A DNA stretch of 64,000 nucleotides from Candidatus Latescibacterota bacterium (GCA_965203355.1 OZ241889.1:2656001-2720000), one strand, 5' to 3'. Positions 21,625 to 45,992 are shown, numbered from the stretch's first letter. The notes: generated from the sequence alone by a model not told the origin. Translations and numbers: made by a program.

Positions 21625-21637
21625 GCGCCTTGCCCCC

Positions 21638-24752: not shown

Positions 24753-24822
24753 ATTTTTACCGCCGAGTTTCGGGGGCCATTTATTCAATCCATTTCATCT
24801 AACCCATTTGGAGGTTTTTCTA

Positions 24823-25763: not shown

Positions 25764-25816
25764 GGCGATAGATAATATAGAGATGGAGGCGACTTCATCT
25801 CTATTTATCTATCGCC
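25764..25816 (+). terminator. Long (~24 bp) stem-loop; terminator, attenuator or mRNA stabiliser
   Basis: GGCGATAGATAATATAGAGATGGAG-GCGA-CTTCATCTCTATTTATCTATCGCC; one bulge, one G-U pair, GNRA loop, followed by TTTG. Confidence 0.75.
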
Positions 25817-25845
25817 TTTGCATCGCTTTCAGGAAGGCATTCTCA

Positions 25846-26592
25846 ATGAGGATACGGAACATCGCAACGAGCGGACTTTTGTCGGCTCTTTATCTGTTCG
25901 CGCTTGTCGGGTGCATCTCACAGGTGGGGCTGCGGCGCTTTGCAACGTTTCCCGAACCCATTCCGCAACAAGACCCGGCCATGACCGTCCTCGACGACGG
26001 GGCGATTGTCTATGCCAAGGATCGCTTGGAGATCTCGCTACAGGTGTTGGATGACGGATTCCTCAATCGCCAGTTCGCGGCCAGTTCAAGGAAGGGTACT
26101 GAATCGACCAATCCATACACGTATGGCAATTGGAAGCCTTGGGGCCAAGACTGGACGCCAGCGCGCTTTACCGTGGTCTTGCTGAAGGTCAAAAACTACG
26201 AGTATCCCAAGGTTTTCATCGACCCCAAATCGCTCGTGATCACCACGTCGAACAATCGAGTGTACAATGCGCTCGATGGCGGACTGCTCGAAGATCACTT
26301 CAGCCCGTATCTGCGCGCTTATGCTGGCAACCAGCGGCAGCAGTTTGAGGCTACCACCGACCTGCTCAAAAGCACGGTCTATCCGCCTGACATGGTGTTT
26401 TCTGGCCAAGAGTCAGAAGGATATGTCGTCTTTCCGGTGTTGCACCGAGACGTGAGCCATTTCACGATCAACGTGCCAGACATGGCCGTGCGTTTCGACT
26501 ACAAGGGCGAACCGGTGGAGACCATTGACTTAGCATTTAAGTTCCAACGCGAAGTGTACTACGCTCTTCATCCCCGGGTGGAGACGCCGTGA
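25846..26592 (+). CDS. Lipoprotein of unknown function (DUF4352-like Ig fold suspected)
   Basis: Lipobox ..LFALVGC; VLLKVKN...VFSGQESEGYVVFP pattern. Start taken at ATG 25846. Confidence 0.7.
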   Translation: MRIRNIATSGLLSALYLFALVGCISQVGLRRFATFPEPIPQQDPAMTVLDDGAIVYAKDRLEISLQVLDDGFLNRQFAASSRKGTESTNPYTYGNWKPWGQDWTPARFTVVLLKVKNYEYPKVFIDPKSLVITTSNNRVYNALDGGLLEDHFSPYLRAYAGNQRQQFEATTDLLKSTVYPPDMVFSGQESEGYVVFPVLHRDVSHFTINVPDMAVRFDYKGEPVETIDLAFKFQREVYYALHPRVETP

Positions 26593-28559
26593 TGAATCGA
26601 GGGAGGGCCGCCCGTATGGCCGTGCTGTTGTGCGCCTCGTGCGTTTGGCCCCCGTGGCTTGCTGCAGACGAATGGGTGCTTGGCGGCAGCGGTGGATTTC
26701 CCTGGGGGGATCTCGTCGAGGTTCGCGCCCAAATCGACGACCAAAGTAGCCCCGGCGCGATTCAGGTCCGCGGCTTTACGCCGGACGATAACATCATTAC
26801 CTCCCTCTCTTGGTCCTACGGCAAGCCCAACGACTTGGTCAGCGAAGGCAATGCGGTGCTGTGGGATAACACAGCGGCGAGGAATCCCATTTCGCTGTCG
26901 ATCGTCGATGGCGACGACACCACAAGCACGGCAGACCTCTTTAAAACCGCTGGCGTCGATCAAGACGGGCGCACCTTCTTTTTTGATATGGGCTCGCGCG
27001 TACCAGCCGATAGCTTGGTCTTCTTCCCCCGGCAAGAGGGGACCTACGCCAACGGCAAGCCCTTTAGCGAGGACTTTGTTCGCAAGCACCGGATTTCCGT
27101 CAGCGATGGGCTTACGTACGTGAACGAACAGCCGCTCTTCACCTTACTGCGCGACGTCCCGGTGAACCCCAACAGCGTGTTCACCATGAAATTTCCCCAG
27201 CAATTCATTCGCTTCATTCAGTTGCGCGTGGGGTCGCGGAGTCCCTTTGAGCTGGCCGAATTTGAACTCTACGGTAACGGCTTCGTGCCGCGAGCAACGT
27301 ACCGGAGCCAAGTCATCGACTTGGGCGAGGTCTCCAACTACGGCACCATATCTTGGGCCCAGCGGGCCTTAGAACTGGTGGACGGTGCGTTGATCGAGTT
27401 GCCGGACTTGGGGCGGACCGCGGTCGCGGTGCGCATGAAGACCGGGCAAGACGACAGCCCGTTGGTTCACTTCAAAAAGGTCATTGACGACGAAACGCGA
27501 GCGGTCAGCCAAGTAGTGGTCTCGGAAGCGGATTACAACAAACTGTCTTCGGGCGAGAAGGGCGATATCGAGGACGACGTCGACAACTGGAGTCCTTGGT
27601 CGTTGCCGCTCGAATCTGGCGAGTTGATCCCATTGCCCAGTCCGCGTCCCTATTTTCAGCTGCAGATTATCATGGAGAGCCAAGCCGTGACGCAGACGGT
27701 GCGCATTGACTCGTTGCGGATTGAGCATTCGCTGCCCTCGGCTGCTGTAGTTGTCGGTGAGATATCCTTGGCTGACGAGCCCAACCCACCGGCCGACATC
27801 GGCGTAATCGACAAAGATGACGCCGTTGTGCTGCCGAGCATTGACGGGGGAGAAGAGGTGCTCTTCGCCTATGACGTGCGCGCCACGATAAACGACAACC
27901 AGAACGGCTTTGATGCTTTGCGCATCGACACGCCGACGCCTGCGCGCTTTGTCGGTCTGCAAATGGGCGATCCGCTCGAGCCTGTGGAACCCGATCGCGT
28001 GCGTGCGGGCGACAGAAGCCTCGAAGTGATTTTCACTAGCAATAAGATCTCTTTTGACAACAATGTGCCGCTGCGGGTGCTCTTTGAGGGATCAACCGTG
28101 GTGTTCGGCACGATTTTTACTGGTACGGTCTGGGATACTCAGTCCGACATTCTCGGCCAGCCCGTGCTCGAAGGCGATGCCAATTTCGACGTCAGCACCA
28201 ACTCGCTGCGCGTGGCTTTGACTCAGCAGTCCGTGGGCGAAATCGTCCGCGCTATAGAGTTTAATCCTGCGGTCTTCACGCCGAATGGGGATGGCATCAA
28301 CGACCATATCGCCATCCAGTACACTGTCATCCAGATTTCCGAGCCTAAGCCCATTGAGGTGGCCATTTACGATTTGGCCGGTCGGCTGGTGCGCGTGCTG
28401 GCCGACCGAGAGCAGCCCGGCGGGATTTACACCGAGATGTGGGATGGGCGGAGCGATGCCGACGAGGCCGTGCCTCCGGGTAGTTACGTGGTCTCGCTCT
28501 CGGTTGACAGCGGGGTCGGCCACTTCAGGCGAGTCGGCGCGGTCGGCGTGGTCTATTAA
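26589..28559 (+). CDS. Secreted discoidin-like/beta-sandwich protein with a C-terminal PNGDGxND (CHU_C/FlgD-like) domain, paralog 1
   Basis: Signal peptide; IVDGD..FDMG..RFIQL..ELAEFELYG; GFDALRI; FTPNGDGIND..IYDLAGRLVR..WDGR..PPGSY; ends VGVVY. Confidence 0.8.
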   Translation: MMNRGRAARMAVLLCASCVWPPWLAADEWVLGGSGGFPWGDLVEVRAQIDDQSSPGAIQVRGFTPDDNIITSLSWSYGKPNDLVSEGNAVLWDNTAARNPISLSIVDGDDTTSTADLFKTAGVDQDGRTFFFDMGSRVPADSLVFFPRQEGTYANGKPFSEDFVRKHRISVSDGLTYVNEQPLFTLLRDVPVNPNSVFTMKFPQQFIRFIQLRVGSRSPFELAEFELYGNGFVPRATYRSQVIDLGEVSNYGTISWAQRALELVDGALIELPDLGRTAVAVRMKTGQDDSPLVHFKKVIDDETRAVSQVVVSEADYNKLSSGEKGDIEDDVDNWSPWSLPLESGELIPLPSPRPYFQLQIIMESQAVTQTVRIDSLRIEHSLPSAAVVVGEISLADEPNPPADIGVIDKDDAVVLPSIDGGEEVLFAYDVRATINDNQNGFDALRIDTPTPARFVGLQMGDPLEPVEPDRVRAGDRSLEVIFTSNKISFDNNVPLRVLFEGSTVVFGTIFTGTVWDTQSDILGQPVLEGDANFDVSTNSLRVALTQQSVGEIVRAIEFNPAVFTPNGDGINDHIAIQYTVIQISEPKPIEVAIYDLAGRLVRVLADREQPGGIYTEMWDGRSDADEAVPPGSYVVSLSVDSGVGHFRRVGAVGVVY

Positions 28560-28600
28560 TGGCGCTTGACCGACAAAAATTCAAAAGGGAGGGTTACAGC

Positions 28601-31231
28601 GTGAGGTCCATGATCTACGCAGTAGTTATCACGGCCGGCGTCGCGTTCCTGTGCGATGCCGCTTTTGCCCAACGGGTTGGCTTTCTGACTGGACGCGAAC
28701 CGCGCGGCGTGGATGTCTATGAGATGGCGATGACTCCAGCCCAGCGGAAGTGGCAATATCCGCAAAGCCTATACCACTTCTATCGTTGGACCGGCGAGGA
28801 ATACAGCAATTACGCCCGTCAAAACTACGAGCGCTACGTATCTACCGAGCTTGAAGGCTTTCGCACTTACGATCTCTACGGGAACTACATCACGCGTGGT
28901 TTTGAGGTGTACAACTGGTCCATGGACAGTCCCGTGACTTCGGGTAGCACGGTCCGCAAGGGGCCCAAGTACAGTGGGTGGTTTCGCAGCTTAATCGTCT
29001 CGTCGATGTCCAAAGGGCAGTTTTATTCTTCGATGACCATTAGCGATGCCCTGCGCACCACCCTGACGCCGCTGACCTTTTCCAAGCCGGCCTTCAACGG
29101 GGTGCAATGGGATTTTGCCGCTGATAAGTACCAGATGACACTCTTGGCGTCGCGCTTGGCTTCCCCGGGTTCAGCCGTGCAATACGAAAACTCACTCGGC
29201 CAGATCTTGGGCGACATGACGAATCTCTTCGGCGCACACTCCAAGGTCCAGCTCGGGGATTTTTCCAAGTTGGGCTTTACCTATCTGAACATTGCCAACT
29301 TTTCCACAGGTCGCAAATTAGGCGACAACTCGCTCAAAGGCGTGCTGACCGAGGCCCAAAACGGCGGCAATGTCGAGACAATCGTCCTGCGGCTCTCGGA
29401 CGATTCGCCCGAAGACGGCGTAGGCGGTGCTCAGCTTTTTGCCGAGCGCATTATCATCAACGGGGTCGATCATCCCGAAATTGTCCCCTCGCCGCGCGGT
29501 GGTGTGCGGCGCGCCGGCGTCATTGAGGCCAATGGGGCGGAGACATTAGAGCTGACTTACAACATCGCCCGCGACTTCCGCCAACAGCCCGACGACGAGA
29601 TCACCACGTTTCAGGAGATCCGCGAAATTGAGTTCGAGTTGGTCATCGCCAATGATTACCGAGTCGAAATCACCTCGAACCTCCAAGTCAATGCTCAAGG
29701 CGAGCCTGTGTTCTTGGAAGTCGAGCGCGCCCACGGCAACGTCAGCGATGGCTCCAACCAGCGCTTCATCCGCTTTGAATACGGCCTGCCGACCGGCAAG
29801 GACATCATTGGCTTCAACTTTGACATAGACGATATCAAGGGCTTCAATATGCGCTCGGAGCTTGCTTTCAGCCGGGCGTTTCGCCGCTTCCCCAATCAGA
29901 ACTTCCAAGATCACGCCCTCGCCCAAGACGAGGGCATGGCCTACTACATCACGGCCTCGCAGGATGCGTATCCGTTTTTCGCGTACGGAGAACTCTATCG
30001 GCTGGAGCCTGAGTACCGCACCAATGCGTTTATCTCGGATGCGCGGGGTTTCATCGATTACGAACACCCAGAGCGCTATTCCTTTGAGGCGGTTGACGAC
30101 AACGACGACCAAGATCGCTTTGCCGACTGGAAGCGCCTGTGGCAAAACGGCGACAACGCCTTTGGTGAATCGCCTTTTGGCACAGGTGGTGCAGCCGACC
30201 CAGAGGTCTTCCCCGGGTACGACGAGAACTCGGACTTCATCTCGGACTTTAACCAGAACGGCAATAGCCAGCCGGATTTCGCCGAGCCGTTTCTGCGCTA
30301 CAACGTCGATCCACCTGAGTTTCTCTTTGGCGTTGACATGAACAACAACAACGTCATCGATCGCTTTGAGAACGACACCTTTGCCGATTATCCCTACCGA
30401 CACGACCGCGATGGCTACAACGTGTACGGAGGCGTTCACTTGACCGAAGCCATCAAAGTGACGCTGGGCCACTCCACGGCCGACGAGATTAGCTCCAAGC
30501 GCAACGCGCAGATGAGCTATGCGGTTGTCACGGGCGAGTGGAAATGGCCGGGCATTGAGGCGCGGGCCTTCCAATACGCTCGCTCGGTCCAAGACGACAT
30601 CGAAGACGATGTGATACAATGGGTCGATCCAGATGGATTTCGCGAAACCATTGACCCGCTGATCGCCCAAGACACCTTTGTCTGGACCGGCTATCTGACG
30701 TTCGACTACCTGCGCCTCAAAAACCTGAATATCTACAACAAGGTGAAGTACGACTGGTTTAATCAGCGCGGTGAGCAAGCCGAGGCCAAAGACAATCGCC
30801 TCTTTTTTGGCGCGATCAACAAGGTGGATTATCCGCTGCCGATTACCGACAATCTGTCTTTTTGGCCGCGCTACAAGAGCGTCTTCCGCAAGATCAACCC
30901 GACCTCTAGCACTGACCTCGACATCACCGAGTGGTCGCAGTTTTACATGCTGACCTCAAAGTACTTCATCCTGCCTGAAACCTTTATCGAATACGGCGTC
31001 GAGCTCAATCTCTTCCGCAACCTCGAAGAGCGCCCGGAGATCTTGCCGCCCGGCTACGTCGATGATTTCACGGGTTCGGTACTCGCCTTGCAGTTTTCCA
31101 ACAAGTCGGCGTACCACGGTTATGCACTCACGATGAACACTGGTTTTCGCTGGGAGCGTCAGGCCTTTGCCGAAGCGACCGAAACGAACACCTTGCTCTT
31201 CATTCGGGCTTTCGTAGGTGTCCAAGAGTAG
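28601..31231 (+). CDS. Large exported protein, putative outer-membrane beta-barrel with a Ca-binding Asp/Asn-rich insert
   Basis: GGAGG RBS before GTG 28601; signal peptide ending AAFA; alternating aromatic beta-strand patterns; DDNDDQD, DENSDFISDFNQNGN, DMNNNNVID loops. Confidence 0.65.
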   Translation: MRSMIYAVVITAGVAFLCDAAFAQRVGFLTGREPRGVDVYEMAMTPAQRKWQYPQSLYHFYRWTGEEYSNYARQNYERYVSTELEGFRTYDLYGNYITRGFEVYNWSMDSPVTSGSTVRKGPKYSGWFRSLIVSSMSKGQFYSSMTISDALRTTLTPLTFSKPAFNGVQWDFAADKYQMTLLASRLASPGSAVQYENSLGQILGDMTNLFGAHSKVQLGDFSKLGFTYLNIANFSTGRKLGDNSLKGVLTEAQNGGNVETIVLRLSDDSPEDGVGGAQLFAERIIINGVDHPEIVPSPRGGVRRAGVIEANGAETLELTYNIARDFRQQPDDEITTFQEIREIEFELVIANDYRVEITSNLQVNAQGEPVFLEVERAHGNVSDGSNQRFIRFEYGLPTGKDIIGFNFDIDDIKGFNMRSELAFSRAFRRFPNQNFQDHALAQDEGMAYYITASQDAYPFFAYGELYRLEPEYRTNAFISDARGFIDYEHPERYSFEAVDDNDDQDRFADWKRLWQNGDNAFGESPFGTGGAADPEVFPGYDENSDFISDFNQNGNSQPDFAEPFLRYNVDPPEFLFGVDMNNNNVIDRFENDTFADYPYRHDRDGYNVYGGVHLTEAIKVTLGHSTADEISSKRNAQMSYAVVTGEWKWPGIEARAFQYARSVQDDIEDDVIQWVDPDGFRETIDPLIAQDTFVWTGYLTFDYLRLKNLNIYNKVKYDWFNQRGEQAEAKDNRLFFGAINKVDYPLPITDNLSFWPRYKSVFRKINPTSSTDLDITEWSQFYMLTSKYFILPETFIEYGVELNLFRNLEERPEILPPGYVDDFTGSVLALQFSNKSAYHGYALTMNTGFRWERQAFAEATETNTLLFIRAFVGVQE

Positions 31232-31257
31232 GGGTTGCCGTATTTTTTTGTGGACCC

Positions 31258-31297
31258 AAAGCGCCCGGCGTTCTCTAGCGGAGATGCCGGGCGCTTT
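31258..31297 (+). terminator. Stem-loop after the putative barrel gene
   Basis: AAAGCGCCCGGCGTTCTC-TAGCG-GAGATGCCGGGCGCTTT followed by ATTG; covers the candidate ATG at 31284. Confidence 0.65.
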
Positions 31298-32534
31298 ATT
31301 GCCTATTGCCGTGGCGTGGCTAGGGCTAGTCGTCCTCCTGGGGGGCGGCTGTGGTTCCGCGGAACGCCACATCCTCAAAAAGCCCGCCACGCCCCAACCT
31401 CTCGCGTTCTATCAACGCGCCTACGAGCAAGACCCCACGGACCCAGCGGTGCTGTTGGCCTTGGGATGGCTTTACCTGCAAAAGGACCGCACGCGCCGTG
31501 CGGCCGCCGTGCTGGCCGAGCTGGTTGCGGTCGCGCCCGACGACGCGGATGCTCACTACTATCTCGGCGTTGCTCTCGCCAAAGAACACCGCAAGAGCGA
31601 GGCCATAGCCGCCCTTAAATACGCCCTTGAAAAGGCACCGGGCTTTGCCGAGGTGTACTGGGCCTTAGCGCTGCTGTACAACGAGCGCGGCGATGGGTAC
31701 GAAGAGGCGCTTGCAGCGGCCGAAGAGGGGCTGCAGCTAGCTGGACAGAGCGGTTATGGGCACTTCGTGTTGGGTTTTGTGCTGTGTTCGCGTGGCGACA
31801 ATGAAAACGCCAAGACCGTGCTGTTGAAGGCTATTGAACTCGACCCGGACTTGGCCCACGCCCACTACTACTTGGCGTTGGTGTACTTGCGCTTACAGGA
31901 CGAGCCGCGCGCCATGGCAGCGATGGAACGGACCATTGCCGCGGACCCAGGTTACACCTCGGCCTATTACAGCTTGGGCACGCTCTATGCGCGCACGGGC
32001 CGCGACGCCGGGGGCGCGCGAATGATCGAGCTTTTCCAGCAGTTGAGTAGCGCGACGATGGACGAGGATCACTACCGCCGCTTGCTCTACCGCCAAGCCG
32101 TGCCCTTAGTGACCGACAAGCAGGTGGCCACGCATTTCAACTTGGGACTGGTCTATTTGCGTAGAAAGGAGTTGACAGCGGCGCTCGAACAATTCGAGGC
32201 GGCCTTGGCCCTCGATTCCACGTACGCGGAGGCCAGCCACAACATCGGGGTGATCTATTCGCTGCAAGAGCAACACGCGGCGGCTCGGCCCTTTTTGCTG
32301 CGCGCAGTTCGCCACAAGCCCGACTACGCGTTGGCCTTTGAAAACATAGGCAACAACAGCTTGGCCCTCGGCGAGTACGCGGAGGCGGTCGCCGCGTTTC
32401 GCCGCGCCTTGGCCCTCGGCGGGAGCATGGTCTCGGCCCTCGAGGGCTTGGGAACCGCGCTAATCCAGCAGGGGCACACAGCAGAAGGCCGCGCGGTTCG
32501 CGCTGAGGCCGCAGCCTTGAGGGCACGACAATAA
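31284..32534 (+). CDS. TPR-repeat lipoprotein
   Basis: LVVLLGGGC lipobox; repeated AHYYLG/HFNLG/AYYSLG TPR units. Start uncertain (31284-31311). Confidence 0.85.
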   Translation: MPGALLPIAVAWLGLVVLLGGGCGSAERHILKKPATPQPLAFYQRAYEQDPTDPAVLLALGWLYLQKDRTRRAAAVLAELVAVAPDDADAHYYLGVALAKEHRKSEAIAALKYALEKAPGFAEVYWALALLYNERGDGYEEALAAAEEGLQLAGQSGYGHFVLGFVLCSRGDNENAKTVLLKAIELDPDLAHAHYYLALVYLRLQDEPRAMAAMERTIAADPGYTSAYYSLGTLYARTGRDAGGARMIELFQQLSSATMDEDHYRRLLYRQAVPLVTDKQVATHFNLGLVYLRRKELTAALEQFEAALALDSTYAEASHNIGVIYSLQEQHAAARPFLLRAVRHKPDYALAFENIGNNSLALGEYAEAVAAFRRALALGGSMVSALEGLGTALIQQGHTAEGRAVRAEAAALRARQ

Positions 32535-34226
32535 ATGTGGTTTGTGCTAGTGGCTATTGGGGCGTTGGCAGGGTGCGGGGGCGAAGCGGCCCAGCCTAGT
32601 TTCGTCGATGTAGCCACCGAAGCGGGGGTCCAATTGCGCACCGTATCTGGGACCCCGCAAAAAGAGCACATCATCGAATGCAACACGGGCGGGACGGCCC
32701 TTTTAGACTACGATCTAGACGGCGACGTGGATATTTTTATCGTCAACGGCTCGCGCATCACCGGATACGCCCCGGGCCGAGAACCTCGCGCTGAGCTGTA
32801 CCGCAACGACAGTGCTTGGCGCTTTACGGGCGTGGGGCGAGAGGCTGGTGTCGCGCACGTGGGTTGGGGGATGGGGGCCACGGCGGTCGACTACAATGCC
32901 GACGGATGGCCCGATCTGTACTTGGCCAACTACGGCCCCAATGCCCTGTACGAAAACAAAGGCACTGGCGCGTTTGTCAATGTGGCGGCCGAGCGGGGCG
33001 TGGACTTTGACGGCTGGAGCTCGTCTGCGGCCTTTGGCGACTACGATCTAGACGGCGACTTGGACTTTTACTTGGCTAATTACATCGACTTTGATCCGGC
33101 GTTTCGCCCGGCGGATCCAAGCTATTGCACTTGGCGCGGGATAGACGTATTCTGCGGCCCGCGCGGGATGCCGGGGGAGCGGGATCTGTTCTATCGCAAC
33201 GAAGGCCCCAGCGCAGGTTGGACCTTTGCCGAGGCGAGTGCGGCGTTTGGCATCGCCGACTACGAGTACTATGGTTTTGCCGCGCTGGCTGGCGATTGGG
33301 ACGAGGACGGCGACTTGGACATTTACATTGCCAATGATTCAACGCCGAATGTGCTCTACCGCAACGACCGAGGCGCGTTTGCGGACGTGTCGCTGCTGTC
33401 GGCGACCGCGTACAGCGAGGACGGCCGCGAACAGGGCGGCATGGGCTTGGCGAGCGGCGACTACGATCGAGACGGCGACTTCGACCTCTTCGTTACCAAT
33501 TTCTCGCACGACAACAACTCGCTCTACGACAACAATGGCCGGGGGTTTTTCACCGACGCGAGTTTCAGCTCGGCGCTGGGCCGTGCGAGCATCAGCTCTT
33601 TGGGATGGGGCGCGGGTTTTTTCGATTGCGACAACGACGGCGACGACGACCTATTCGTCGCCAATGGCCACGTGTACCCGGCCGTCGACCACCGCGACTT
33701 AGGAACCCGCTACGCCCAGCGCAACCATCTGTTTGAAAATCGCGACGGCGCATTTGTCGAAGTGGGTGTAGCCTCGGGGCCGGGCCTCGCCGTGGAAAAG
33801 TCGAGCCGGGGCGCGGCCTTCGGCGATTTGGACAACGATGGCGACTTGGACCTTGTGATAGTCAATATCGACGACACGCCAACGGTCCTGCGCAACGACG
33901 GGGGCAATCGCCACAACTATCTAATGGTGAGGTTGCGCGGCGCGGGCGGGAATACTGAGGCCATTGGTGCGCGGGTTTCGGTTTCGGTGGGTGGTGCGGT
34001 GCAGATGCGGGAGGTGCGTGCGGGCACGGGCTATCTGTCGCAGGACGACCTACGGCTGCATTTCGGCTTGGGAGCGGCGACGGCGGCCGATCACCTCGTG
34101 GTGCGCTGGCCCGATGGCGTGGAAGAGCGCCTCGACCGGGTGGAGGGCAATAGGCTGATCACCATCCAGCGCGGCGCGGGCCTCGTCGCCGAGGGATTTG
34201 GACCCGGGCCGAGGCTGAGGCCGTGA
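32535..34226 (+). CDS. CRTAC1-family (FG-GAP/VCBS repeats + ASPIC/UnbV) lipoprotein
   Basis: LAGC lipobox; many DYDxDGDxD repeats; C-terminal AIGARV...GYLSQDD..LHFGLG..VRWPDG. Confidence 0.9.
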   Translation: MWFVLVAIGALAGCGGEAAQPSFVDVATEAGVQLRTVSGTPQKEHIIECNTGGTALLDYDLDGDVDIFIVNGSRITGYAPGREPRAELYRNDSAWRFTGVGREAGVAHVGWGMGATAVDYNADGWPDLYLANYGPNALYENKGTGAFVNVAAERGVDFDGWSSSAAFGDYDLDGDLDFYLANYIDFDPAFRPADPSYCTWRGIDVFCGPRGMPGERDLFYRNEGPSAGWTFAEASAAFGIADYEYYGFAALAGDWDEDGDLDIYIANDSTPNVLYRNDRGAFADVSLLSATAYSEDGREQGGMGLASGDYDRDGDFDLFVTNFSHDNNSLYDNNGRGFFTDASFSSALGRASISSLGWGAGFFDCDNDGDDDLFVANGHVYPAVDHRDLGTRYAQRNHLFENRDGAFVEVGVASGPGLAVEKSSRGAAFGDLDNDGDLDLVIVNIDDTPTVLRNDGGNRHNYLMVRLRGAGGNTEAIGARVSVSVGGAVQMREVRAGTGYLSQDDLRLHFGLGAATAADHLVVRWPDGVEERLDRVEGNRLITIQRGAGLVAEGFGPGPRLRP

Positions 34227-37245: not shown

Positions 37246-38983
37246 CGCGAGAAAATGGATAGGGCTTGCTGCCGGTGCCTTCCTTTTTGGTTGTGCGCAA
37301 GAGCCAGCGGCTCCGGTTGCCGAGGGAGGTGGTTTAGCGGTGCCTGATGCCGCTTTGGCCCAAGTCGGCGACGACCTAATTGACGACCGCGCATTCCGCC
37401 GCTACGAAGCCCGGATCCAATCGCAGCACCGATCTTTGGCCCAAGGCGTGGAAAAGCACCGCGAGCACCTGATGAGTTTGATCGACATCAAGCTCATGGT
37501 GCGCGAGGCGTACGTGCGAGGACTGGACAAAAACCCCGCATGGATCAAGGCTGTGGAACTCGCCCAACACAAGGCCATGATCGAAGCCTATCTGCGCGAG
37601 CAAGTCGGGCTGCAAATCGAGATTTCCGAAGACGAGTTGCGCGCCAATTTTGCCGTGCATCCAGCCCGCTACGCCGTGCGCGGGGCGCACATCCTGCTCG
37701 ACAGCCGCGCCCGCGCCGATTCCATCTACGCGGAGATCGCATCCGGCCGGGCTACTTTTGAGGACATGGCACGCCAGCACTCGCTGGACGAAAAGACAGC
37801 GGCCGATGGGGGTTGGTTTGCTTCGTACTATGCCTTTGACCGAGTCTCCGACCGAGTGTACGAGCGCGTGTTCTCGTTGGACGTAGGCGAGGTCAGCCCA
37901 CCCTTCCGCACGCCTCAAGGCTGGGAAATCGCCCAGGTCGTCGATAAGAAGTTGGTGCCTTTTGAAAAGTATCGCTCGGTGATCCAGCGGGCGACTTTTC
38001 TCGAAAAAATCGAGAACTTGCGCAGCGATCACATTGATAAGCTAGTCGTCGAGAGCGGCTTGCGCCCGGTGGGGGAGCAGGTGCGGCGTTTTGTCGCGGC
38101 TTGGAACCAACAGCCTGGTGCGCCACAGCTTGCGCCCGAGGAGTGGAACGCCTCGCTCTACGAGTACGATGGCGGCGTTATCACCGTGCAGCAGGGCAGC
38201 AACCTGTTGCACAATACGCGGTTGGGCCGCGCCCAAATCGACAGTGCCTTGCTCGACGACCGAATCCGCCGCCGTGGAGCACCCGACCTGCTGTTGGGCT
38301 TGGCGGCCGAGCGCGGAGGATACGCCGAGCGGCCCGAGGTGCAGGAGCAGGTGACGGCCGAAAAGGAGCGCTTGTTGCTACAAGGGCTGTGGGAAGATTT
38401 GCTCGAAGACGCCTTAGCGGTGAGCGACGAGGAAGCACGCGCCCACTACGAAGCGCATCCAGAGATGTACTGGGCACCAGAGGAAATTATCGTCCAAGAA
38501 ATCATGGTCGCCGACGAGTCGCTCGCCCAAGAGCTGCTGGAGCAAATTCGCGATGGGGCCGATATGGCCGCGCTGGCAACCAAGCATAGCATCCGCCGCG
38601 ATGCGGATGAAAATGGTGGCCTCTACGCGCTGCGTGCATTTGAAAAGATCGTTTACAAGGAGCTGATGGACGCGGCCATATCCGCGCCCGAAAGGGAGTT
38701 GCAAGGTCCGATTGAACTAGTCGATCCCTTGCCGGCTTCGCTGCGCGATCTTCAGCCTTTGGAACGGGCTTTTTCAATCTTCAAGGTCTTGCAGCACCGA
38801 CCCAAGCGAGTGCAAGAATACGAATTGAGCCAACAGAAGGCCCACTACTTGGCTCGTCAAGAAAAACAGCAGCGCGAATTGCGTACCCTCAACCTACAGT
38901 TGCGCGACAAATGGCGCGATGTATGGGGCATCAACGCGGCCGCGCTCGAAAAATACGCGCTGGCCAATGCGTCGCAAAAATAA
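37235..38983 (+). CDS. Peptidyl-prolyl isomerase lipoprotein with two parvulin domains (SurA/PrsA-like)
   Basis: FLFGC lipobox; VRGAHIL..FEDMARQHSLD..GG..GEVSPPFRTPQGW; second domain VQEIMV..DMAALATKHS. Confidence 0.88.
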   Translation: MINNARKWIGLAAGAFLFGCAQEPAAPVAEGGGLAVPDAALAQVGDDLIDDRAFRRYEARIQSQHRSLAQGVEKHREHLMSLIDIKLMVREAYVRGLDKNPAWIKAVELAQHKAMIEAYLREQVGLQIEISEDELRANFAVHPARYAVRGAHILLDSRARADSIYAEIASGRATFEDMARQHSLDEKTAADGGWFASYYAFDRVSDRVYERVFSLDVGEVSPPFRTPQGWEIAQVVDKKLVPFEKYRSVIQRATFLEKIENLRSDHIDKLVVESGLRPVGEQVRRFVAAWNQQPGAPQLAPEEWNASLYEYDGGVITVQQGSNLLHNTRLGRAQIDSALLDDRIRRRGAPDLLLGLAAERGGYAERPEVQEQVTAEKERLLLQGLWEDLLEDALAVSDEEARAHYEAHPEMYWAPEEIIVQEIMVADESLAQELLEQIRDGADMAALATKHSIRRDADENGGLYALRAFEKIVYKELMDAAISAPERELQGPIELVDPLPASLRDLQPLERAFSIFKVLQHRPKRVQEYELSQQKAHYLARQEKQQRELRTLNLQLRDKWRDVWGINAAALEKYALANASQK

Positions 38984-39040
38984 AACAGCACCGCTTGGGT
39001 AAATTTTTTATACTACCCTGATATATCGGGAGTAAAACCT

Positions 39041-41086
39041 ATGAAACGTCTATTGAATTTGTGGCTTTGGTTTCTCACCGCGGCATTAGCTACGGGCGCG
39101 GCAGCGGACATCGCCCTGTGGCAGCTCGGCGGCAGCGGCCTTGGCTGGGCCGCTAGCGACTCGGCGCAGGTAATGATCGACTTTACCGGAGCGAATAACT
39201 CGATCCAGCCAGTGCTGGTGAGTTCGGATACGACGGTCTTTCCCCTGCTCGAGAATTGGTCGCCGAAAAAGGATCCAGACGAGCTAGGTTTTGTCGATGG
39301 CGAGCGGCCCCGCGCTTGGAAGGGCTGCTGCGGCACCTCATCAACGGTTGACAACGCGCTCAACCTCATCGACGGCAATGGCAAGACGTACAATCCGGTG
39401 ACCAGCAACAGCATTAACAGCGAGTACTACACCATTGATTTGGGGGTGCCGTTGCCGTTGTTCGGCTTTGCTATGAGCACACCGGACAAGGGGTTTTATC
39501 GTTCGGATGGGACGCCGCTAGAAGAAGACGCCGTCCCGGCCTTTGAGGTGTCTATTGCCCCAGACACCAACAACGACGTGCTGAACACCGCCAACCCCAT
39601 CGGGGAGATCATCGTCGAGGCGCGTGAGAATGTGATCCCCAAGATAGCGGCGGATTTTCCCTTGCAATACGTGCGCTACGTGCGCTACAAGCGCAAGAAT
39701 TCAATCCTCGATGAAGCGACCAATCAGTCGGCCGGCCATTCGGGCACGGCGCGTAAAGGCACGGTGGCCGAGTTTTTCCTCTGGGGAGAGGGCATCCCCA
39801 AGCGGGCCACGTACAAGACCGTTATTTTTGATCTCGGCACCGTCGTCAACTTCGGTCGGCTGTTCTGGAAGGCCACGCCCATGCGCCTAGTCAACGGCGT
39901 GGCTGAGGAAGCCCCGGACGCCCATGTGCAGATAGAGGTCGAAGCGCGCACCGGGATAGACTCAAATCCAGACATCTACTACGAGTTCACGGACATGGGG
40001 ACGCGCGTCGCGGTCGATCAAGCCCGCTATCAGGGCGTGTTAAAAAATCAGAGTTCGGCCATTACCAATGCCGACGGGCTGGGCGGCACGCTTACCCTTT
40101 CCACGCGGCCCAAGCCGGGGCTGCGCGCTGGCATTGAGTACGACCAACAAAACTGGACGTTTTGGTCTTTTCCGACCACCGAGTCCGACCGACCTCTCAA
40201 CCTCAACCGGGGGTCGCATTTGCAGATCAAGGTAGTGCTGCACAGCGAGCGATTCGACGAGTTCGTGCGTCTCGATTCCCTGTGGATAGAGACCTCGCCG
40301 ATTCTGGCCAGCCGCGTCGTAGCTGAGGTGGCCGAACTCGGTCAGCCCAATCCAGTGCGCGGCGTGGCCGAGGTGTCTTTGGGCGAGATGACCGACTTCA
40401 CCTACGACATTAAGGCAGAATTTGCGGCAGATGAGCTGGGTTTTGACGCCCTGCGGATTAGGACGGGCAGCGCACAGACCGAGTTCAAAGGGCTGGAAAT
40501 GGACGGGGTTACAACCGAGCCGGCCGGAGTAGAGGTCGCGGATGGCGGCTTTGTCGTGGAGTTGCCGCAGCGCATAAGTCGCGCCTACAACCCGCGCTTG
40601 CGGGTTACTTTTGCCGCCGAGGTCTTCGACTTTGCGCGCACCTTTGAGGGCGAGGTTTTCAACACCGACCGGGCCGATTTGCCGCAGCCAGTCGAGGGTG
40701 GGGACGTCAGCGATGCGATCGGGACCAATAGCGTTCGGGTCTTGGCTGCGAGCGCGGCCAATCCGCAATTAGTACAAGACGTGCAGTTTTCCAGCGGCGT
40801 GATCACCCCCAATGGCGACGGGGTCAACGACGAGTTGGTCCTGTCCTACGCGCTCTTCGCGCTGCCGCAATCGGTGCCTGTACAGTTGCAAGTATTTTCG
40901 CTTGACGGTCGTCAGGTGGCGCAAATCCAGCGCGGCCAGCAAGGGTCTGGGCCTCAGCAATTACACTGGGATGGCCGCGACCAACGCGGCAAGACGCTGG
41001 CCCCGGGCCTGTATCTTTTGGGCGTCGGCATTGAAGCCGAAGACGCGGGCGATCTGCGGTTGAGGCCGGTCGGTATTGCATATTAA
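39041..41086 (+). CDS. Secreted PNGDGxND-tailed protein, paralog 2
   Basis: Signal peptide; WQLGGSG (cf. WVLGGSG in paralog 1); LIDGN..IDLG; GFDALRI; ITPNGDGVND; WDGRD..APGLY; ends VGIAY. Confidence 0.8.
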   Translation: MKRLLNLWLWFLTAALATGAAADIALWQLGGSGLGWAASDSAQVMIDFTGANNSIQPVLVSSDTTVFPLLENWSPKKDPDELGFVDGERPRAWKGCCGTSSTVDNALNLIDGNGKTYNPVTSNSINSEYYTIDLGVPLPLFGFAMSTPDKGFYRSDGTPLEEDAVPAFEVSIAPDTNNDVLNTANPIGEIIVEARENVIPKIAADFPLQYVRYVRYKRKNSILDEATNQSAGHSGTARKGTVAEFFLWGEGIPKRATYKTVIFDLGTVVNFGRLFWKATPMRLVNGVAEEAPDAHVQIEVEARTGIDSNPDIYYEFTDMGTRVAVDQARYQGVLKNQSSAITNADGLGGTLTLSTRPKPGLRAGIEYDQQNWTFWSFPTTESDRPLNLNRGSHLQIKVVLHSERFDEFVRLDSLWIETSPILASRVVAEVAELGQPNPVRGVAEVSLGEMTDFTYDIKAEFAADELGFDALRIRTGSAQTEFKGLEMDGVTTEPAGVEVADGGFVVELPQRISRAYNPRLRVTFAAEVFDFARTFEGEVFNTDRADLPQPVEGGDVSDAIGTNSVRVLAASAANPQLVQDVQFSSGVITPNGDGVNDELVLSYALFALPQSVPVQLQVFSLDGRQVAQIQRGQQGSGPQQLHWDGRDQRGKTLAPGLYLLGVGIEAEDAGDLRLRPVGIAY

Positions 41087-41157
41087 ACCGAGTGCTCAGG
41101 CGGCACTGTTCAACCGTTAAACATTGGCTTGCCAAAGCGAGGAGAAGAAACCCTATC

Positions 41158-43623
41158 ATGCGAGACTATACCATGCACATACTTGCCCTGGCCCTACTGC
41201 TGCCTGGTGGGGCTTACGCCGAGTTCCTCTCCTTCGACAGCCAAGCCGCTTGGGAAGCCAACTGGTCGCTCAAGCCCCAGTTAAACGTCTTCACGCCGGA
41301 GGGGCACTTGGGGTTGATCAAGTTTCGCAAGGACATTAACGCCACGCTCGACGCCCACCGCTTTGTCCACCCAACCAATGAACGCGGTGATGTGGCCGGT
41401 GGCATCTGGTCGGCGCTGAGCAACCCCAACGCCGCCCCCCGGATCATCGACGGGGATACCGCCACCTTTTGGCAGCCAGTCGGCAGCGATCCGCTCGACA
41501 CGTGGATCGTGCAAATCGACTTGGGCCGTGCGGTACTGGCCAAAGAGATCCGCATCCACTTCCCCGACCAAGAGGGGGCCAAACCCTTCCGCCAGTTTAG
41601 CGTTTTCGCCTCTACCGGTGCTCACGTGGCGGCCTTAGAGGACGTATATCGCTTTGCACCGGTCTATCGCACAACCCAACCCAACTTGGATACGTATGTC
41701 AGCTTTGGGTTCAAGTCGGCCGTGGAGGATACCACCCGCGCCGTGGAGCAACTGAGCGACACTGGAGGCAGCGCGGACTTTTCCGCCCCGGAGTTTACCG
41801 GCGACGCCAACACCGCCACCACCGGCGGCCGCAACAAGGCGGTGGCGACCGGCCAAGCCGATTCACGAGTGGACGCTAACGCTAGGTGGCAGATGATCCA
41901 GTTCGTCCGCTTTCTCGTCGATGAGCACCAGCTCGACGGTGCGCTCGCCGAAATCGAGGTCATTGCCGTCGGCGACAATATCAGCCTTGGGGTCGAGGAA
42001 AAGGGGGGCACGTACATCAATGGATCGCGGGCGACCGACCCCTTCTTTTGGCTCGACGGCAACCTCAATACGTACGGGGTCATTGAGGTGCATCAACAGT
42101 TTACCGAGTCGCGCGGCACGGCCTTTGAAGGGGGCTTGTGGTGGCAGGTAGATCTGGGGGCGACCTACTGGGTTGACGATGCCTTCGTCTATTGGCAAAA
42201 GGCCGGCGAGCGCCTCGCCGATTTCCGCTTGGGGACCAACAACGCCGGCACGGGGTACACCTTTTTCTCTTCTGACGGCACCGAGACCCTGACCGGAGAC
42301 TTTGACTTTGATACGTGGATTTTTGAACCGGAGTGGACCAATGCCCGCGAGCAATACAAGCGGCACTACCGGTATTTGTTCAACCCGCGCAAGGTGCGGC
42401 ACATCTTCTGGCTGGCCCTGCACGACTTGGGTTGGCGCGCCCATCCCATGGAACTACAGATGTTCTCCCCGGGGTATCCAGCCGAAGTTGTGATCCAATC
42501 GAACTTTTTGGATCTGAGTGTGCTCGCGGGCGACGGGCAGCCCAAGGTGATCAAGGCACTCCACTACGACGCCGACCTGCCACCCAATACCCAGATCGAG
42601 CTGCGCTCCCGCTCGGGCAACGCAATGGGCGAGGTGTACACCTTTCACAACAAGATCGGCGAGGTAGTAACCGAGGAGAAGTGGAAAAGCTCTCCCAAGG
42701 TGCTGCGGGGCCGAGTGGATACCTCGGTCGTCGTCGGGGAGGATTGGAGCGAGTGGAGCAACGTGTACAAGCTGTCGGGGGAGCCTTTTAAGTCGGACTC
42801 GCCGCGCAAATTCGCCCAGTTAGCGCTGGTTATGAGCACGGAAGATCCCGAGGTGGCTCCCACAGTGCGCTCCGTCGAGTTGGAATTCGTCGATGCGCTG
42901 GTCAACGAGGCGCGCGGGTCGATTTTGCCGCGCCAAGCTAAGCCCAACGAAGCTACCCGTTTCACGTATAAGCTGTGGCCGTCCGTGGTCGCGGACAACA
43001 AGGGTTTTGACCGCCTGCGCTTGGTCGTGCCCGACTTGGTACGGGCCGATGAAGTCGAGGTGACCGTCGCTGGTCAGGTGGTGGCGCCGATGGCTATGGG
43101 CCTTGCCGCCGATTCGCTGTTGATCGACTTGCCGCAGGTCGTACAAGGGGACTCCGTGCAGGTCGCCTTCACCACGCGGTTGGTGCGGAACGCCGCCGTC
43201 GTCGAGGCCGATCTCGGGCTGAGCGACGCGCCCGGCCTGTGGCAAGATGTCGAGCCAGCCGAGCGTCGATCTAACGTGGTGCTGTTGCCCGAGCTGGCCG
43301 ACAGCGAGCGCTTGATGGGCGACTTGCAGCTTTCGAGCCGAGTGCTCACGCCCAATGGCGATGGGGTCAACGACGCGGTGGAACTGAGCTTCGTCGTCTT
43401 CAAGGCCCAAGATGCGGTGCCCCTGGTTGAGGTGCGCGACTTGGTCGGCCGGCCCGTGGCCCAGTTGACGCCGGTCTCAGAGGGGCCGACCCGCCGCTTT
43501 ACGTGGAATGGCCAAGATGCGGCCGGTGCCACCGTGCCGCCGGGCATCTATCTCTGGCGCATAGACGCAAACGCAGACTCAGGGGATACCATTGAGCTGC
43601 GCGTCGTCGAGGTGGCCTACTAA
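41158..43623 (+). CDS. Secreted PNGDGxND-tailed protein with two discoidin-like modules, paralog 3
   Basis: IIDGD..IDLG; WWQVDLG; GFDRLRL; LTPNGDGVND; PPGIY; ends VEVAY. Confidence 0.8.
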   Translation: MRDYTMHILALALLLPGGAYAEFLSFDSQAAWEANWSLKPQLNVFTPEGHLGLIKFRKDINATLDAHRFVHPTNERGDVAGGIWSALSNPNAAPRIIDGDTATFWQPVGSDPLDTWIVQIDLGRAVLAKEIRIHFPDQEGAKPFRQFSVFASTGAHVAALEDVYRFAPVYRTTQPNLDTYVSFGFKSAVEDTTRAVEQLSDTGGSADFSAPEFTGDANTATTGGRNKAVATGQADSRVDANARWQMIQFVRFLVDEHQLDGALAEIEVIAVGDNISLGVEEKGGTYINGSRATDPFFWLDGNLNTYGVIEVHQQFTESRGTAFEGGLWWQVDLGATYWVDDAFVYWQKAGERLADFRLGTNNAGTGYTFFSSDGTETLTGDFDFDTWIFEPEWTNAREQYKRHYRYLFNPRKVRHIFWLALHDLGWRAHPMELQMFSPGYPAEVVIQSNFLDLSVLAGDGQPKVIKALHYDADLPPNTQIELRSRSGNAMGEVYTFHNKIGEVVTEEKWKSSPKVLRGRVDTSVVVGEDWSEWSNVYKLSGEPFKSDSPRKFAQLALVMSTEDPEVAPTVRSVELEFVDALVNEARGSILPRQAKPNEATRFTYKLWPSVVADNKGFDRLRLVVPDLVRADEVEVTVAGQVVAPMAMGLAADSLLIDLPQVVQGDSVQVAFTTRLVRNAAVVEADLGLSDAPGLWQDVEPAERRSNVVLLPELADSERLMGDLQLSSRVLTPNGDGVNDAVELSFVVFKAQDAVPLVEVRDLVGRPVAQLTPVSEGPTRRFTWNGQDAAGATVPPGIYLWRIDANADSGDTIELRVVEVAY

Positions 43624-43637
43624 CAGGTTAGAGCCGT

Positions 43638-45992
43638 ATGATGCAGAGGAAATACCGGATTTGCTACGTGTTCGCGGCCCTGTTCATCTGTGGTGCGAGC
43701 CGGGCCGAGGAAATCCGCTTCGATACCCCGGCCGAATGGGCGACTTGGGAAGTTCCGGTCGACATCGTCCAGTTTGCCGCCGACGGCTCGCTGGAACTGA
43801 GGAAATTCCGCAAGGAGATCAACGCGGCCCTCAATGCCCATCTCTTCACCCAACCCACCCAGAAGCGCGGCGAAATCACGGGCGGGATCTGGCAGGTCGG
43901 CTCCAATCCGACGACGGCCCGGCGCATCATGGACGGAGACCAGGCGACCGTGTGGCAGCCCAGTCAAGCCGACGACTTGGTCGATTGGGTCGTGACCATC
44001 GACTTGGGGCGTCCCGTGCTAGCCGAGCGCATTCGCTTGGTGTTCCCCGATCGTGTGGGAGCGCGTCCTTGGCGACAATTCAGTGTTTTCACGGCCAATG
44101 GTGCGCGGATCCAGGCTACGGACGATGTCTTCAAGTTCGACCAAGCCTTTCAGACGACCCAGCCCAATCGAGAGCAGGTCGTCGATATCGAGTTAATCGG
44201 CGAGCGCGACGTAACGCGGGTTATCGACGAAAACCTCGGGCTGGAACCCGCCGCGCTGAATACCTTCCGCATGGTGCGCTTTGTGCGCGTGCGTGCCGAC
44301 GAAAAGAGCCCTGACGCGGCTTTGGCCGAGGTGGAAGTGATCGCCGCGGGCGACAACATAAGCCTCGGCGTGTTGGCACGCGGGGGCCGCTTTGACAACG
44401 GACTTTTGGCGCGCGAACCCCAGAACATGTTCGATGGCATCACCGACACGTACGGCAATATATTCACCGTCCAGAGCAAGGGCGGCTGGCGCGAGAGTGG
44501 GGTGTGGTGGTCGGTCGATTTAGGTGCGTTGTTTTGGCTCGACGAGGCCTTCATTTACTGGCAGAATCGCGGCGAGGGCCAGTCGAGCTTCCTGTTCGAG
44601 GGATTGCAGGCTGGCACCGGCTATCAAATCCTCTTTTCCGATGGGCGGCGCACCATTGCCGGCGACATCGACTACGCCCCCCTGATTTTCGAGCCGGCGC
44701 CGGTTAGCACCGCCGAGCGGAACTTGCGCCGCCACCGCTACGTGTTTGCGCCGCGCAAGATCCGCTACTTGTTCTGGCATTCGCTGACGGATACAGGTTG
44801 GTTTTCCCACCCCATGGAGTTGATGCTGTTCTCGCCGGGCTACCCGGCGCAGGTGGTGTTGCTCTCGGACTTTATCGACCTCGGCCAACTCGCTGGCGAT
44901 GGTCGCGCCAAGGCCATCAAGCACTTGCGCTGGGAGGCGACCACGCCGGAACAGACGCGATTGCAGGTGCGTTCGCGGTCGGGCAACACCCTCCGAGAGT
45001 TCTACACGTTCTACGACAAAAAGGGCGATGAAGTCACCGAGACGCGCTACAATAGCCTGCCCAAAGTCATCCGCGGCCCCATCGACACCATGGTCGTCGT
45101 CGGGGCCGATTGGGGTGCGTGGAGCAATTTTTACCAGTTTTCCGGCGAAGCGTTTAAGTCGGAGACGCCGCGCCGTTTTATTCAACTGGAGCTGATTCTC
45201 TCCACCGAGGATCCGGCTGTCGCACCGGTGCTGCACGCGCTGGCACTGGATTTTGAGGATGCGTTGGTCGCCCAAGCCGCCGGGCAGATTGCGCCGCGTC
45301 AGGCCGTGCCCAACGAGACGACGCGGTTTACCTATACGCTGCGGACGAATGCGACCGAAGGCGATTCGGGCTTTGATCGGCTGCGCTTTTCGACGCCGAG
45401 TGCCGTGGATGCGGCGGCGGTGCGGCTGCGGGTCGGCGGTGCGGAACGCGCGGCGAGCGCGGTGCGCCTGGAGGGCGATTCGCTGCTTTTTGTCGATTTG
45501 CCGGAGGTGGTGCGGACGGATTCTGTCGCCGTGGAGTTTACCGCGAAGGTGCTGCACAATGCCACGGTCTTTGCCGTCGACTTAGGGCAGTCAGCGCGTC
45601 CCGATTTGTGGCAGTCAGTCGAGGCGACCGAGCGGCAAGCGAACGTGGTATTTTTGCCGGACTTACCCGGCAGCCAGCGGCTGATCGGCGATTTGCAGGT
45701 TGCGCCGTCGGTGTTTTCGCCCAACGGCGATGGGGTCAACGACCGCGTGCAGATCCGCTTTGCGCTGTTCAAGGCGGTGAATGCCACGCCGAGTGTGCGC
45801 ATCTTCGACTTGGCGGGTCGAGAAGTGGCGGAGCTTGTGTCGTCTGGTGGCGATGTGTTGCAGTCGTTTAGTTGGGGCGGGCTGGATGCGTCGGGTGCTC
45901 GGGTGATGCCGGGCGTGTACGTATGCCGCATTGACGCGGGAGCCGATGCCGGGCAGGGGGAAGTAATTCGCACCATAGCCGTAGCCTATTGA
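43638..45992 (+). CDS. Secreted PNGDGxND-tailed protein, paralog 4 (closest to paralog 3)
   Basis: KFRKEINAALNAH (cf. KFRKDINATLDAH), HPMELMLFSPGYPA, GFDRLRF, FSPNGDGVND; ends IAVAY. Confidence 0.8.
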   Translation: MMQRKYRICYVFAALFICGASRAEEIRFDTPAEWATWEVPVDIVQFAADGSLELRKFRKEINAALNAHLFTQPTQKRGEITGGIWQVGSNPTTARRIMDGDQATVWQPSQADDLVDWVVTIDLGRPVLAERIRLVFPDRVGARPWRQFSVFTANGARIQATDDVFKFDQAFQTTQPNREQVVDIELIGERDVTRVIDENLGLEPAALNTFRMVRFVRVRADEKSPDAALAEVEVIAAGDNISLGVLARGGRFDNGLLAREPQNMFDGITDTYGNIFTVQSKGGWRESGVWWSVDLGALFWLDEAFIYWQNRGEGQSSFLFEGLQAGTGYQILFSDGRRTIAGDIDYAPLIFEPAPVSTAERNLRRHRYVFAPRKIRYLFWHSLTDTGWFSHPMELMLFSPGYPAQVVLLSDFIDLGQLAGDGRAKAIKHLRWEATTPEQTRLQVRSRSGNTLREFYTFYDKKGDEVTETRYNSLPKVIRGPIDTMVVVGADWGAWSNFYQFSGEAFKSETPRRFIQLELILSTEDPAVAPVLHALALDFEDALVAQAAGQIAPRQAVPNETTRFTYTLRTNATEGDSGFDRLRFSTPSAVDAAAVRLRVGGAERAASAVRLEGDSLLFVDLPEVVRTDSVAVEFTAKVLHNATVFAVDLGQSARPDLWQSVEATERQANVVFLPDLPGSQRLIGDLQVAPSVFSPNGDGVNDRVQIRFALFKAVNATPSVRIFDLAGREVAELVSSGGDVLQSFSWGGLDASGARVMPGVYVCRIDAGADAGQGEVIRTIAVAY

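Follow-up and report, generated by a model that had tools for sequence, protein, structure and literature searches.

A stretch of 64,000 nucleotides from a Candidatus Latescibacterota bacterium (GCA_965203355.1 OZ241889.1:2656001-2720000), in the following called the window, raises the question of what four paralogous proteins do beside a giant predicted barrel. Both are encoded between 24808 and 47873, where 13 closely packed open reading frames (ORFs) run in the same direction on the + strand; the barrel, of 890 amino acids (aa), is referred to as B890. An earlier note on this DNA had proposed that the paralogs are interchangeable lectin-like or receptor subunits on a common stalk. [quoted passage not shown] Genome-wide statements refer throughout to a relative, G001, and to other genomes, not to the window's own. 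In the reading that we prefer, which is tentative and falls a little short of probable, the paralogs are lectin-like proteins exported by the T9SS and held by their C-terminal domain (CTD) on a cognate barrel, within a multi-copy module for capture or uptake.

Architecture and C-terminus of the paralogs

All four genes lie on the + strand. Paralogs 1 (26589..28559, 656 aa) and 2 (39041..41086, 681 aa) carry the motif WxLGGSG, while paralogs 3 (41158..43623, 821 aa) and 4 (43638..45992, 784 aa) carry KFRKxINA, which confirms the two subfamilies of the earlier note. The frame of paralog 3 opens at a GTG at 41092 (843 aa), and the ATG at 41158 gives 821 aa. With a family hidden Markov model (HMM), no member beyond these four is detected in the window, and a barrel HMM finds one barrel gene. 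In an end-to-end MAFFT alignment, with identities to paralog 1 of 23-30%, every motif that had been listed as shared falls among the invariant columns. In paralog 1 numbering these are D244-L245 (I/F-DL), W334..W337-S338 (WSxWS-like), G440-F441-D442..L444-R445 (GFDxLR), P565-N-G-D-G..N571-D572 (PNGDGxND), W618..G620..P630-G631..Y633 and the terminal Y656.

The idea of interchangeable heads on a constant stalk fared less well, since conservation is nearly even along the length. Within the subfamilies, every region shows 49-55% identity between paralogs 3 and 4, and paralogs 1 and 2 share 27-36%. Between the subfamilies, the N-terminal region reaches 18-23% and the two middle stretches 19-26% and 20-28%; for the CTD the value is 29-39%. 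A constant stalk with a variable head is therefore an overstatement: the CTD is only slightly better conserved than the rest, and the paralogs are homologous over their whole length, paralogs 3 and 4 having an additional discoidin module at the N-terminus.

Each of the four starts with a signal peptide, as read from the sequence. Paralog 1, the only paralog that was folded, gave an all-β AlphaFold2 model (26 homologues, mean predicted local distance difference test (pLDDT) 88) consisting of a head (aa ~64-231), two β-sandwiches (aa ~235-394 and ~420-545) and the CTD (aa ~550-656). In structural comparison with VIA-align, residues 64-231 resemble CBM32 modules (4a42_A, Z 14.0, root-mean-square deviation (rmsd) 2.2, 124 aligned residues; 7blg, Z 13.3). 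This head has no Pfam match even at E<=1, so that its assignment to CBM32 is one of fold. The head of paralog 2 is likewise without HMM match and is 27% identical to that of paralog 1 over the head region. F5/8 type C modules, alike in fold, are recognized by Pfam in the KFRKxINA subfamily, with two stretches in paralog 3 (PF22633, 50.6 bits; PF00754, 36.0 bits) and a match in paralog 4 (PF22633, 31.3 bits), whereas the heads of paralogs 1 and 2 escape all Pfam models even at E<=1. The galactose-binding-like N-terminal regions that had been anticipated are therefore found. Two discoidin modules do occur in paralogs 3 and 4 only; a single one is present in the paralog 1 model, and the WxLGGSG subfamily is thus also predicted to have a discoidin-type head. 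The term lectin-like stands as far as these folds go, and the ligand would be a glycan or another polymer. The WSxWS-like and GFDxLR motifs lie in the middle domains, and the resemblance of the spacers (aa 235-545) to FN3/Ig domains comes from a generic Foldseek list only. Searches of single domains against Pfam at E<=1 (head and spacers of paralog 1; N-terminus, insert and acidic loop of B890; membrane domain of the gene at 45999..47873) returned nothing usable.

The extreme C-terminus of the paralog 1 model is a seven-stranded Ig-like β-sandwich. Residues 550-656 match the fold of the non-cleaved CTD of PorU from P. gingivalis (6za2_A 1054-1157; Z 12.8, rmsd 2.4, 99 aligned residues, 22% identity). 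Over the last ~80 residues, CHU_C and/or FlgD_ig are found by Pfam in all four paralogs: PF13585 (CHU_C, cut-off 27) is passed by paralogs 1 and 4 with 35.1 and 27.7, and PF13860 (FlgD_ig, cut-off 27 bits) by paralogs 1 and 2 with 31.4 and 30.0. A profile search of the PDB with the family retrieved FlgD Ig domains (3osv, E 1.3e-9) and, weakly, PorU (E 0.066), while NCBIfam gave weak sub-threshold matches in the CTD region to PorU (paralog 2) and PorZ (paralog 4). The CTDs of PorU and PorZ, which are not cleaved and are held on PorV/PorQ barrels, are the best structural match of the paralog 1 CTD and have a similar length of ~105 residues. They differ in that the sequence similarity is marginal and that the PorU of G001 ends in ...LQVAQ, while the family ends in Tyr; retention of the family CTD on the protein would be a further likeness. 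According to PMC11285876, PorU and PorZ keep longer CTDs (96-108 residues) and cleaved ones have 67-88. That source and PMC10994853 describe a motif on the last CTD strand as required for T9SS function, and the latter has PorV in contact with a Lys close to the end of type A CTDs.

The terminal Tyr, whose loss in homologues the earlier note had named beforehand as decisive against its proposal, is conserved in all homologue sets counted. In the window its codons are at 28554-28556, 41081-41083, 43618-43620 and 45987-45989. Paralog 1 has 95 homologues in the database, the most distant at 24% identity, and 91 of them end in Tyr, the exceptions being one His and three truncated fragments. In 64 related loci, 138 of the 143 family ORFs longer than 450 aa end in Tyr and the others in Trp (2), Phe (1), His (1) and Gln (1). 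Counted as distinct tails, 139/144 end in Tyr and 142/144 in an aromatic residue, and the consensus of the last seven residues of these 144 is [R/G]-x-[VIL]-[AGS]-[VIL]-[A/V]-Y. For distant cluster representatives (the best 148 matches of a profile search of 1.84 billion representatives, minus five proteins >1500 aa), the count is 134 Tyr out of 143, besides Phe (5), Arg (2), His (1) and Lys (1), with signs of truncation in at least two of the non-aromatic cases. A Tyr end occurs in only 1 of 162 non-family neighbor ORFs, so the conservation is far beyond chance. Other ends are found on the type A cargo of the window (...LTLLK) as well as on PorU of G001. Of the proposal that the terminal β-strand is a docking or export signal, the resemblance of the last ~105 residues to a T9SS CTD and the constancy of the Tyr have held, and docking and export themselves would be what these features serve.

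The barrel and its pairing with the family

The start of B890 (28559..31231, +) shares one base with the stop of paralog 1. B890 has no Pfam or NCBIfam match at E<=0.01 and no sequence relative in the PDB. Its AlphaFold2 model (pLDDT 78.8, predicted TM-score 0.78) shows ~24 long antiparallel strands with an inserted β domain (aa ~265-400). Foldseek returned 47 matches at E<=0.001, and all 45 listed are outer-membrane barrels, with MtrB as the best (E 1.5e-9), followed by SlpA, FimD, LptD and porins. With VIA-align, Z values of 11-14 were obtained against many barrels without a clear leader; FimD, at Z 13.3, is level with unrelated barrels. By its fold, B890 is therefore predicted to be an outer-membrane β-barrel, with a signal peptide. 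An Asp/Asn-rich loop (aa ~500-615) contains, by eye, two EF-hand/dockerin-like Ca2+ loop stretches (DxNxNxxxDxxE, aa ~555-610), which are invariant in 37 homologues and have a pLDDT <50. Outer-membrane barrels usually end in an aromatic residue. Members of the B890 family end in ...VYAGL[E/Q/D], with no terminal aromatic (window 31229-31231), while the PorV-like and PorP-like barrels of the relative end in Phe (L066:1405-2457; L068:357-1292). The family comprises at least 880 database clusters, and all named ones among the homologues listed are 'hypothetical'. A TonB-dependent transporter of the SusC type was looked for as well: B890 has no Plug or TonB_dep_Rec match, the same library recognizes true ones in neighboring loci, and the structural likeness to such transporters is generic. 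DUF6029 was suggested by an ESM Atlas lead that scored 0.89; it was rejected, since hmmscan gave no support and the other Atlas clusters were unnamed.

The succession of paralog 1 and B890 is not peculiar to the window. In the 64 related loci, searched by tblastn and phmmer with the operon proteins, a recurrent cassette consists of up to three paralogs and, behind them, a barrel gene or two, often near genes for a prolyl isomerase, CRTAC1-like, tetratricopeptide repeat (TPR) and CBM9-like proteins and a lipoprotein. A family member stands directly upstream on the same strand (<400 bp) of 41 of the 55 complete B890-family ORFs. The other 14 follow another B890 gene (9), have a paralog further upstream (3) or have another gene in that position (2); five near-identical orthologous loci are among those counted. 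The upstream place is taken by paralog-1-like (22) and paralog-4-like (15) genes.

The scale of the expansion is apparent from the complete 6.6 Mb genome of G001, whose paralog 1 orthologue is 94% identical. It contains 60 barrel matches (~55 ORFs by our own count) and, with 150 of 283 candidates scored, 153 matches to the paralogs at E<=1e-10, which correspond by our reading to at least 130 genes. By our own arithmetic from the match tables, barrels and heads make up ~6% of its DNA. About 11 larger proteins of G001 have only the last ~165 residues in common with the paralogs. This larger class measures 1026-1152 aa (e.g., C1:3083044-3083529, 4206050-4206550 and 452025-452510), and several of its genes lie directly upstream of barrel genes. 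At 50% identity the family forms about 800 clusters at E<=1e-30, and up to 96 first-look barrel candidates were found in one of 120 sampled genomes. Close relatives differ in copy number: in G001 the orthologous locus (C1:5072209-5094674) has five paralogs, one extra of the paralog-3/4 type, versus four in the window, and at L046 five paralogs follow the isomerase gene.

Contigs that are 90-95% alike, from RNA libraries of three studies (four metatranscriptome runs), cover both paralog 1 and B890; the junction is spanned by two. They give only a hint of expression of the two genes, as carry-over of DNA is possible and the runs were picked with this same stretch; uncovered parts of the operon mean nothing here, and depth cannot rank the genes. 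The run labels include sponge metagenomes, and the family is also present in metagenome-assembled genomes (MAGs) titled freshwater and pelagic.

Proposed export and docking, and rival explanations

A T9SS is compatible with the window and its relatives. Two genes of the window, 50097-53030 (-) and 53049-55031 (-), pass the type A model TIGR04183 (27.5 and 30.0 bits versus a cut-off of 23). They encode adjacent secreted PQQ/GSDH-like propellers with type A ends (...LTLLK), one of which has an SO2930-family diheme cytochrome c domain. In G001, translocon and attachment parts are above their cut-offs: SprA (484 bits), PorU (624 bits) and an adjacent PorV/PorQ-family protein (235 bits versus a cut-off of 90). 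SprA is also present in each of five further genomes that bear barrels. PF11751 (PorP_SprF) and TIGR03517 (GldM) gave no match in G001, and their absence does not follow because the positive control gave nothing either; TIGR03519 found one sub-threshold PorP-like gene (49.7 bits).

Among the closest known parallels is type B cargo with its PorP/SprF-like carrier (SprB-SprF, PG1035-PorP). As stated in PMC9143113, such cargo stays bound to PorP/SprF-like barrels, and PMC12618676 and PMC9143113 place the carrier gene directly downstream of the cargo gene. The likeness extends to a Sec signal peptide, a CTD starting with a TPNGDGxND-type motif, an outer-membrane barrel gene directly downstream and 'orphan' cargo genes that lack their own carrier gene. 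The differences are as clear. The barrel has ~890 instead of ~300 residues and no detectable relation to PorP/SprF. The family CTD is below the TIGR04131 cut-off, has the seven-stranded fold of type A and PorU CTDs and ends in an obligatory Tyr. There are more than 100 family copies per genome, compared to 12 type B substrates in F. johnsoniae according to PMC12618676.

On this basis, the paralogs would be exported by Sec as all-β surface proteins with one head (paralogs 1 and 2) or two (paralogs 3 and 4), two spacers and a CTD of ~105 residues, and this CTD would take them across the outer membrane through the SprA translocon. It would remain uncut and dock the protein on the barrel encoded directly downstream, in parallel to type B cargo on its PorP/SprF-like carrier and to PorU on PorV, with the invariant last strand and the aromatic end forming part of the recognition surface. 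As paralogs 2-4 lack an adjacent barrel gene, their partner would be B890 or another barrel, used in common. Together with the isomerase, TPR lipoproteins, CRTAC1-like propellers and inner-membrane importers, the lectin/barrel pairs would make up a multi-copy module for the capture, and probably also the uptake, of glycans or other polymers.

The polysaccharide utilization loci (PULs) of Bacteroidota, with their SusC/SusD pairs and surface glycan-binding proteins, are a further parallel. Common to both are many pairs of barrel and binding protein, importers and some degradative enzymes nearby. Unlike in PULs, the barrel lacks a TonB-dependent receptor or Plug match, the binders are CTD proteins and not SusD-like lipoproteins, the gene order is reversed and this operon has no carbohydrate-active enzymes (CAZymes). 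It is conceivable, though rather doubtful, that this is an undescribed outer-membrane system of Latescibacterota and relatives, a counterpart of SusC/SusD from unrelated parts, in which a third class of T9SS sorting domain plugs diverse lectin heads onto a new family of giant barrels. The sorting domain would combine a core of the FlgD-Ig kind with a PNGDGxND start like that of type B and with an aromatic residue as its obligatory C-terminus. The barrels would have ~24 strands or more and EF-hand-like acidic loops, with dozens of barrels and more than 100 heads per genome.

Several results weigh against export by the T9SS and docking on the barrel. Paralogs 2 and 3 stay under the CHU_C cut-off of 27 (24.7 and 22.5), as do paralogs 3 and 4 for FlgD_ig (19.5 and 18.9). 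With TIGR04183, paralog 1 reaches 18.1 bits and paralogs 2-4 have no match at E<=0.01; with TIGR04131 (cut-off 35), paralogs 1 and 4 fail at 24.5 and 17.7. B890 has no PF11751 or TIGR03519 match, and hhalign gave probabilities of 0.5% and 0.2% against the PorP-like and PorV-like barrels of the relative. Family arrays without a barrel gene within 10 kb exist at L005, L053 and L047. For 35 adjacent pairs, mirror-tree correlations were r 0.53 (CTD), 0.68 (middle) and 0.38 (N-terminal), with Spearman coefficients of 0.17-0.35; as there is no CTD-specific signal, the co-divergence of the pairs is explicable by joint duplication. SprA was found in 119 of 120 sampled genomes of the phylum and B890 in 67 of 120, and the sole genome without SprA does have B890. 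Given that SprA is near-universal, its co-occurrence with B890 is uninformative, and the presence of a T9SS is a matter of compatibility, not evidence of dependence. The lack of CAZymes in the operon belongs here too.

Among the alternatives, the one that survives best holds that the paralogs are ordinary T9SS cargo whose CTD is cut by PorU, the proteins being released or linked to lipopolysaccharide, and that B890 is a separate, co-regulated channel for diffusion or uptake, SusC-like in function and no anchor. The equality of the CTD fold with type A-like CTDs, the PorU and PorV-family protein of G001, the importer genes nearby and a barrel that resembles the porins and sugar channels CymA, AlgE and KdgM as much as anything would all fit. 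A CTD of ~105 residues has, however, the size of the non-cleaved domains of PorU and PorZ and not the 67-88 residues that PMC11285876 gives for cleaved ones. The family CTD also fails TIGR04183, and its VAY terminus is unlike the ...LLK/R/Q of type A cargo and PorU in the same genomes. Moreover, cargo precedes barrel (41/55) as in carrier-bound type B cargo. We consider this explanation unlikely.

A lower probability is given to a coat or adhesin layer for attachment to hosts or particles, which partly overlaps the other explanations. The paralogs would then provide binding diversity or antigenic variation without a role in uptake. A very large family of varying copy number with discoidin-type heads would suit this purpose, as would the sponge metagenome labels, the resemblance of B890 to the S-layer-anchoring barrel SlpA and the leucine-rich repeat (LRR) proteins beside some barrels. 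The family also occurs, however, in the MAGs titled freshwater and pelagic, and importers, sulfatases and hydrolases recur nearby. No phase-variation element turned up, though no search for one was made. Taken together, we regard a pure adhesin layer as improbable.

Least credible of all is the notion that B890 is an export or assembly device independent of the T9SS. The paralog would be threaded through the barrel, or plugged into it, during folding by the β-barrel assembly machinery, similar to MtrA in MtrB, to LptE in LptD or to export by ushers, and its terminal aromatic strand would work like a β-signal. Here, the order of the Foldseek matches (MtrB, then the FimD/PapC ushers and LptD, with FimD at Z 13.3 in VIA-align), a family C-terminus of alternating hydrophobics and Tyr/Phe/Trp end that looks like an outer-membrane β-signal, the presence of the aromatic on the soluble partner and not on the barrel (the relative's own barrels ending in Phe), and the periplasmic prolyl isomerase and TPR lipoproteins of the operon are set against barrel matches that are generic across dozens of unrelated barrels, a CTD predicted as a complete, self-contained Ig fold, a T9SS in every genome tested but one and no usher, Plug or POTRA domain match in B890.

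Gene neighborhood and significance

Of the remaining genes of the row, all on the + strand, several would belong to the proposed capture module. The first of the row encodes a CBM9-like secreted protein of 305 aa (24808..25725), which recurs in many related loci. It is followed by a lipoprotein with an LVGC lipobox and without a Pfam model (25783..26592, likely start 25846), which recurs upstream of paralog-1-type genes in some related loci and for which ESM Atlas returned unnamed clusters only. After B890, four genes occupy 31218..37245: a TPR protein (31218-32534), two proteins of the FG-GAP/ASPIC-UnbV (CRTAC1-like) kind (32535-34226 and 34223-35860) and a second TPR protein (35857-37245). 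The exported parvulin-type peptidyl-prolyl isomerase at 37178..38983, with two PPIC domains and weak SurA/PrsA-like matches, is a candidate periplasmic chaperone. Behind paralog 4, the row ends with a polytopic membrane domain (~390 aa, no family match) fused to TPR repeats (45999..47873), whose homologues come after barrel genes in L010 and L023.

Divergent from the operon, an ABC importer (SBP_bac_1 and two permeases) is encoded at 20143-24501 (-), an arrangement repeated in the orthologous locus L001. Beside related loci, solute-binding proteins, parts of ABC systems, sulfatases and some glycoside hydrolases were found (60 of 206 non-redundant neighbor ORFs surveyed, no background count). 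Such an assortment of importers, sulfatases, hydrolases and LRR proteins is suggestive. LRR proteins are encoded at L032:14525-16087, L044:14129-15544 and L006:2387-4237, those of L032 and L044 starting at or just before the end of the barrel gene. DUF6785/DUF6784 membrane proteins are found at L006:19065-21059, L009:4983-6959 and L022:17160-19145. Upstream of the operon, 8880-13081 (+) encodes YfhO-like and TMEM260-like (with TPR) membrane proteins; from these and the TPR-fused membrane gene that closes the operon, glycosylation of the exported proteins is a possibility. At 55306-58206 (-), a 966-aa ORF carries a methyltransferase-like NPPF motif but matches no family of Pfam or NCBIfam; its product may act in restriction-modification or defense.

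No paper describing the paralog/B890 system was found, which is weak evidence of absence because subscription journals were not covered. If the proposed system is real, a large share of the envelope coding capacity of an uncultured and widespread phylum would lie in one modular system that is unnamed in databases, and the repertoire of T9SS sorting signals and carriers would be widened beyond Bacteroidota. A CTD ending in [VIL]-[AV]-Tyr would provide a sequence rule for finding further cargo. The pairs of lectin-like protein and barrel would bear on how surface proteins are tethered to barrels, as well as on what these bacteria bind in sponges, sediments and water.

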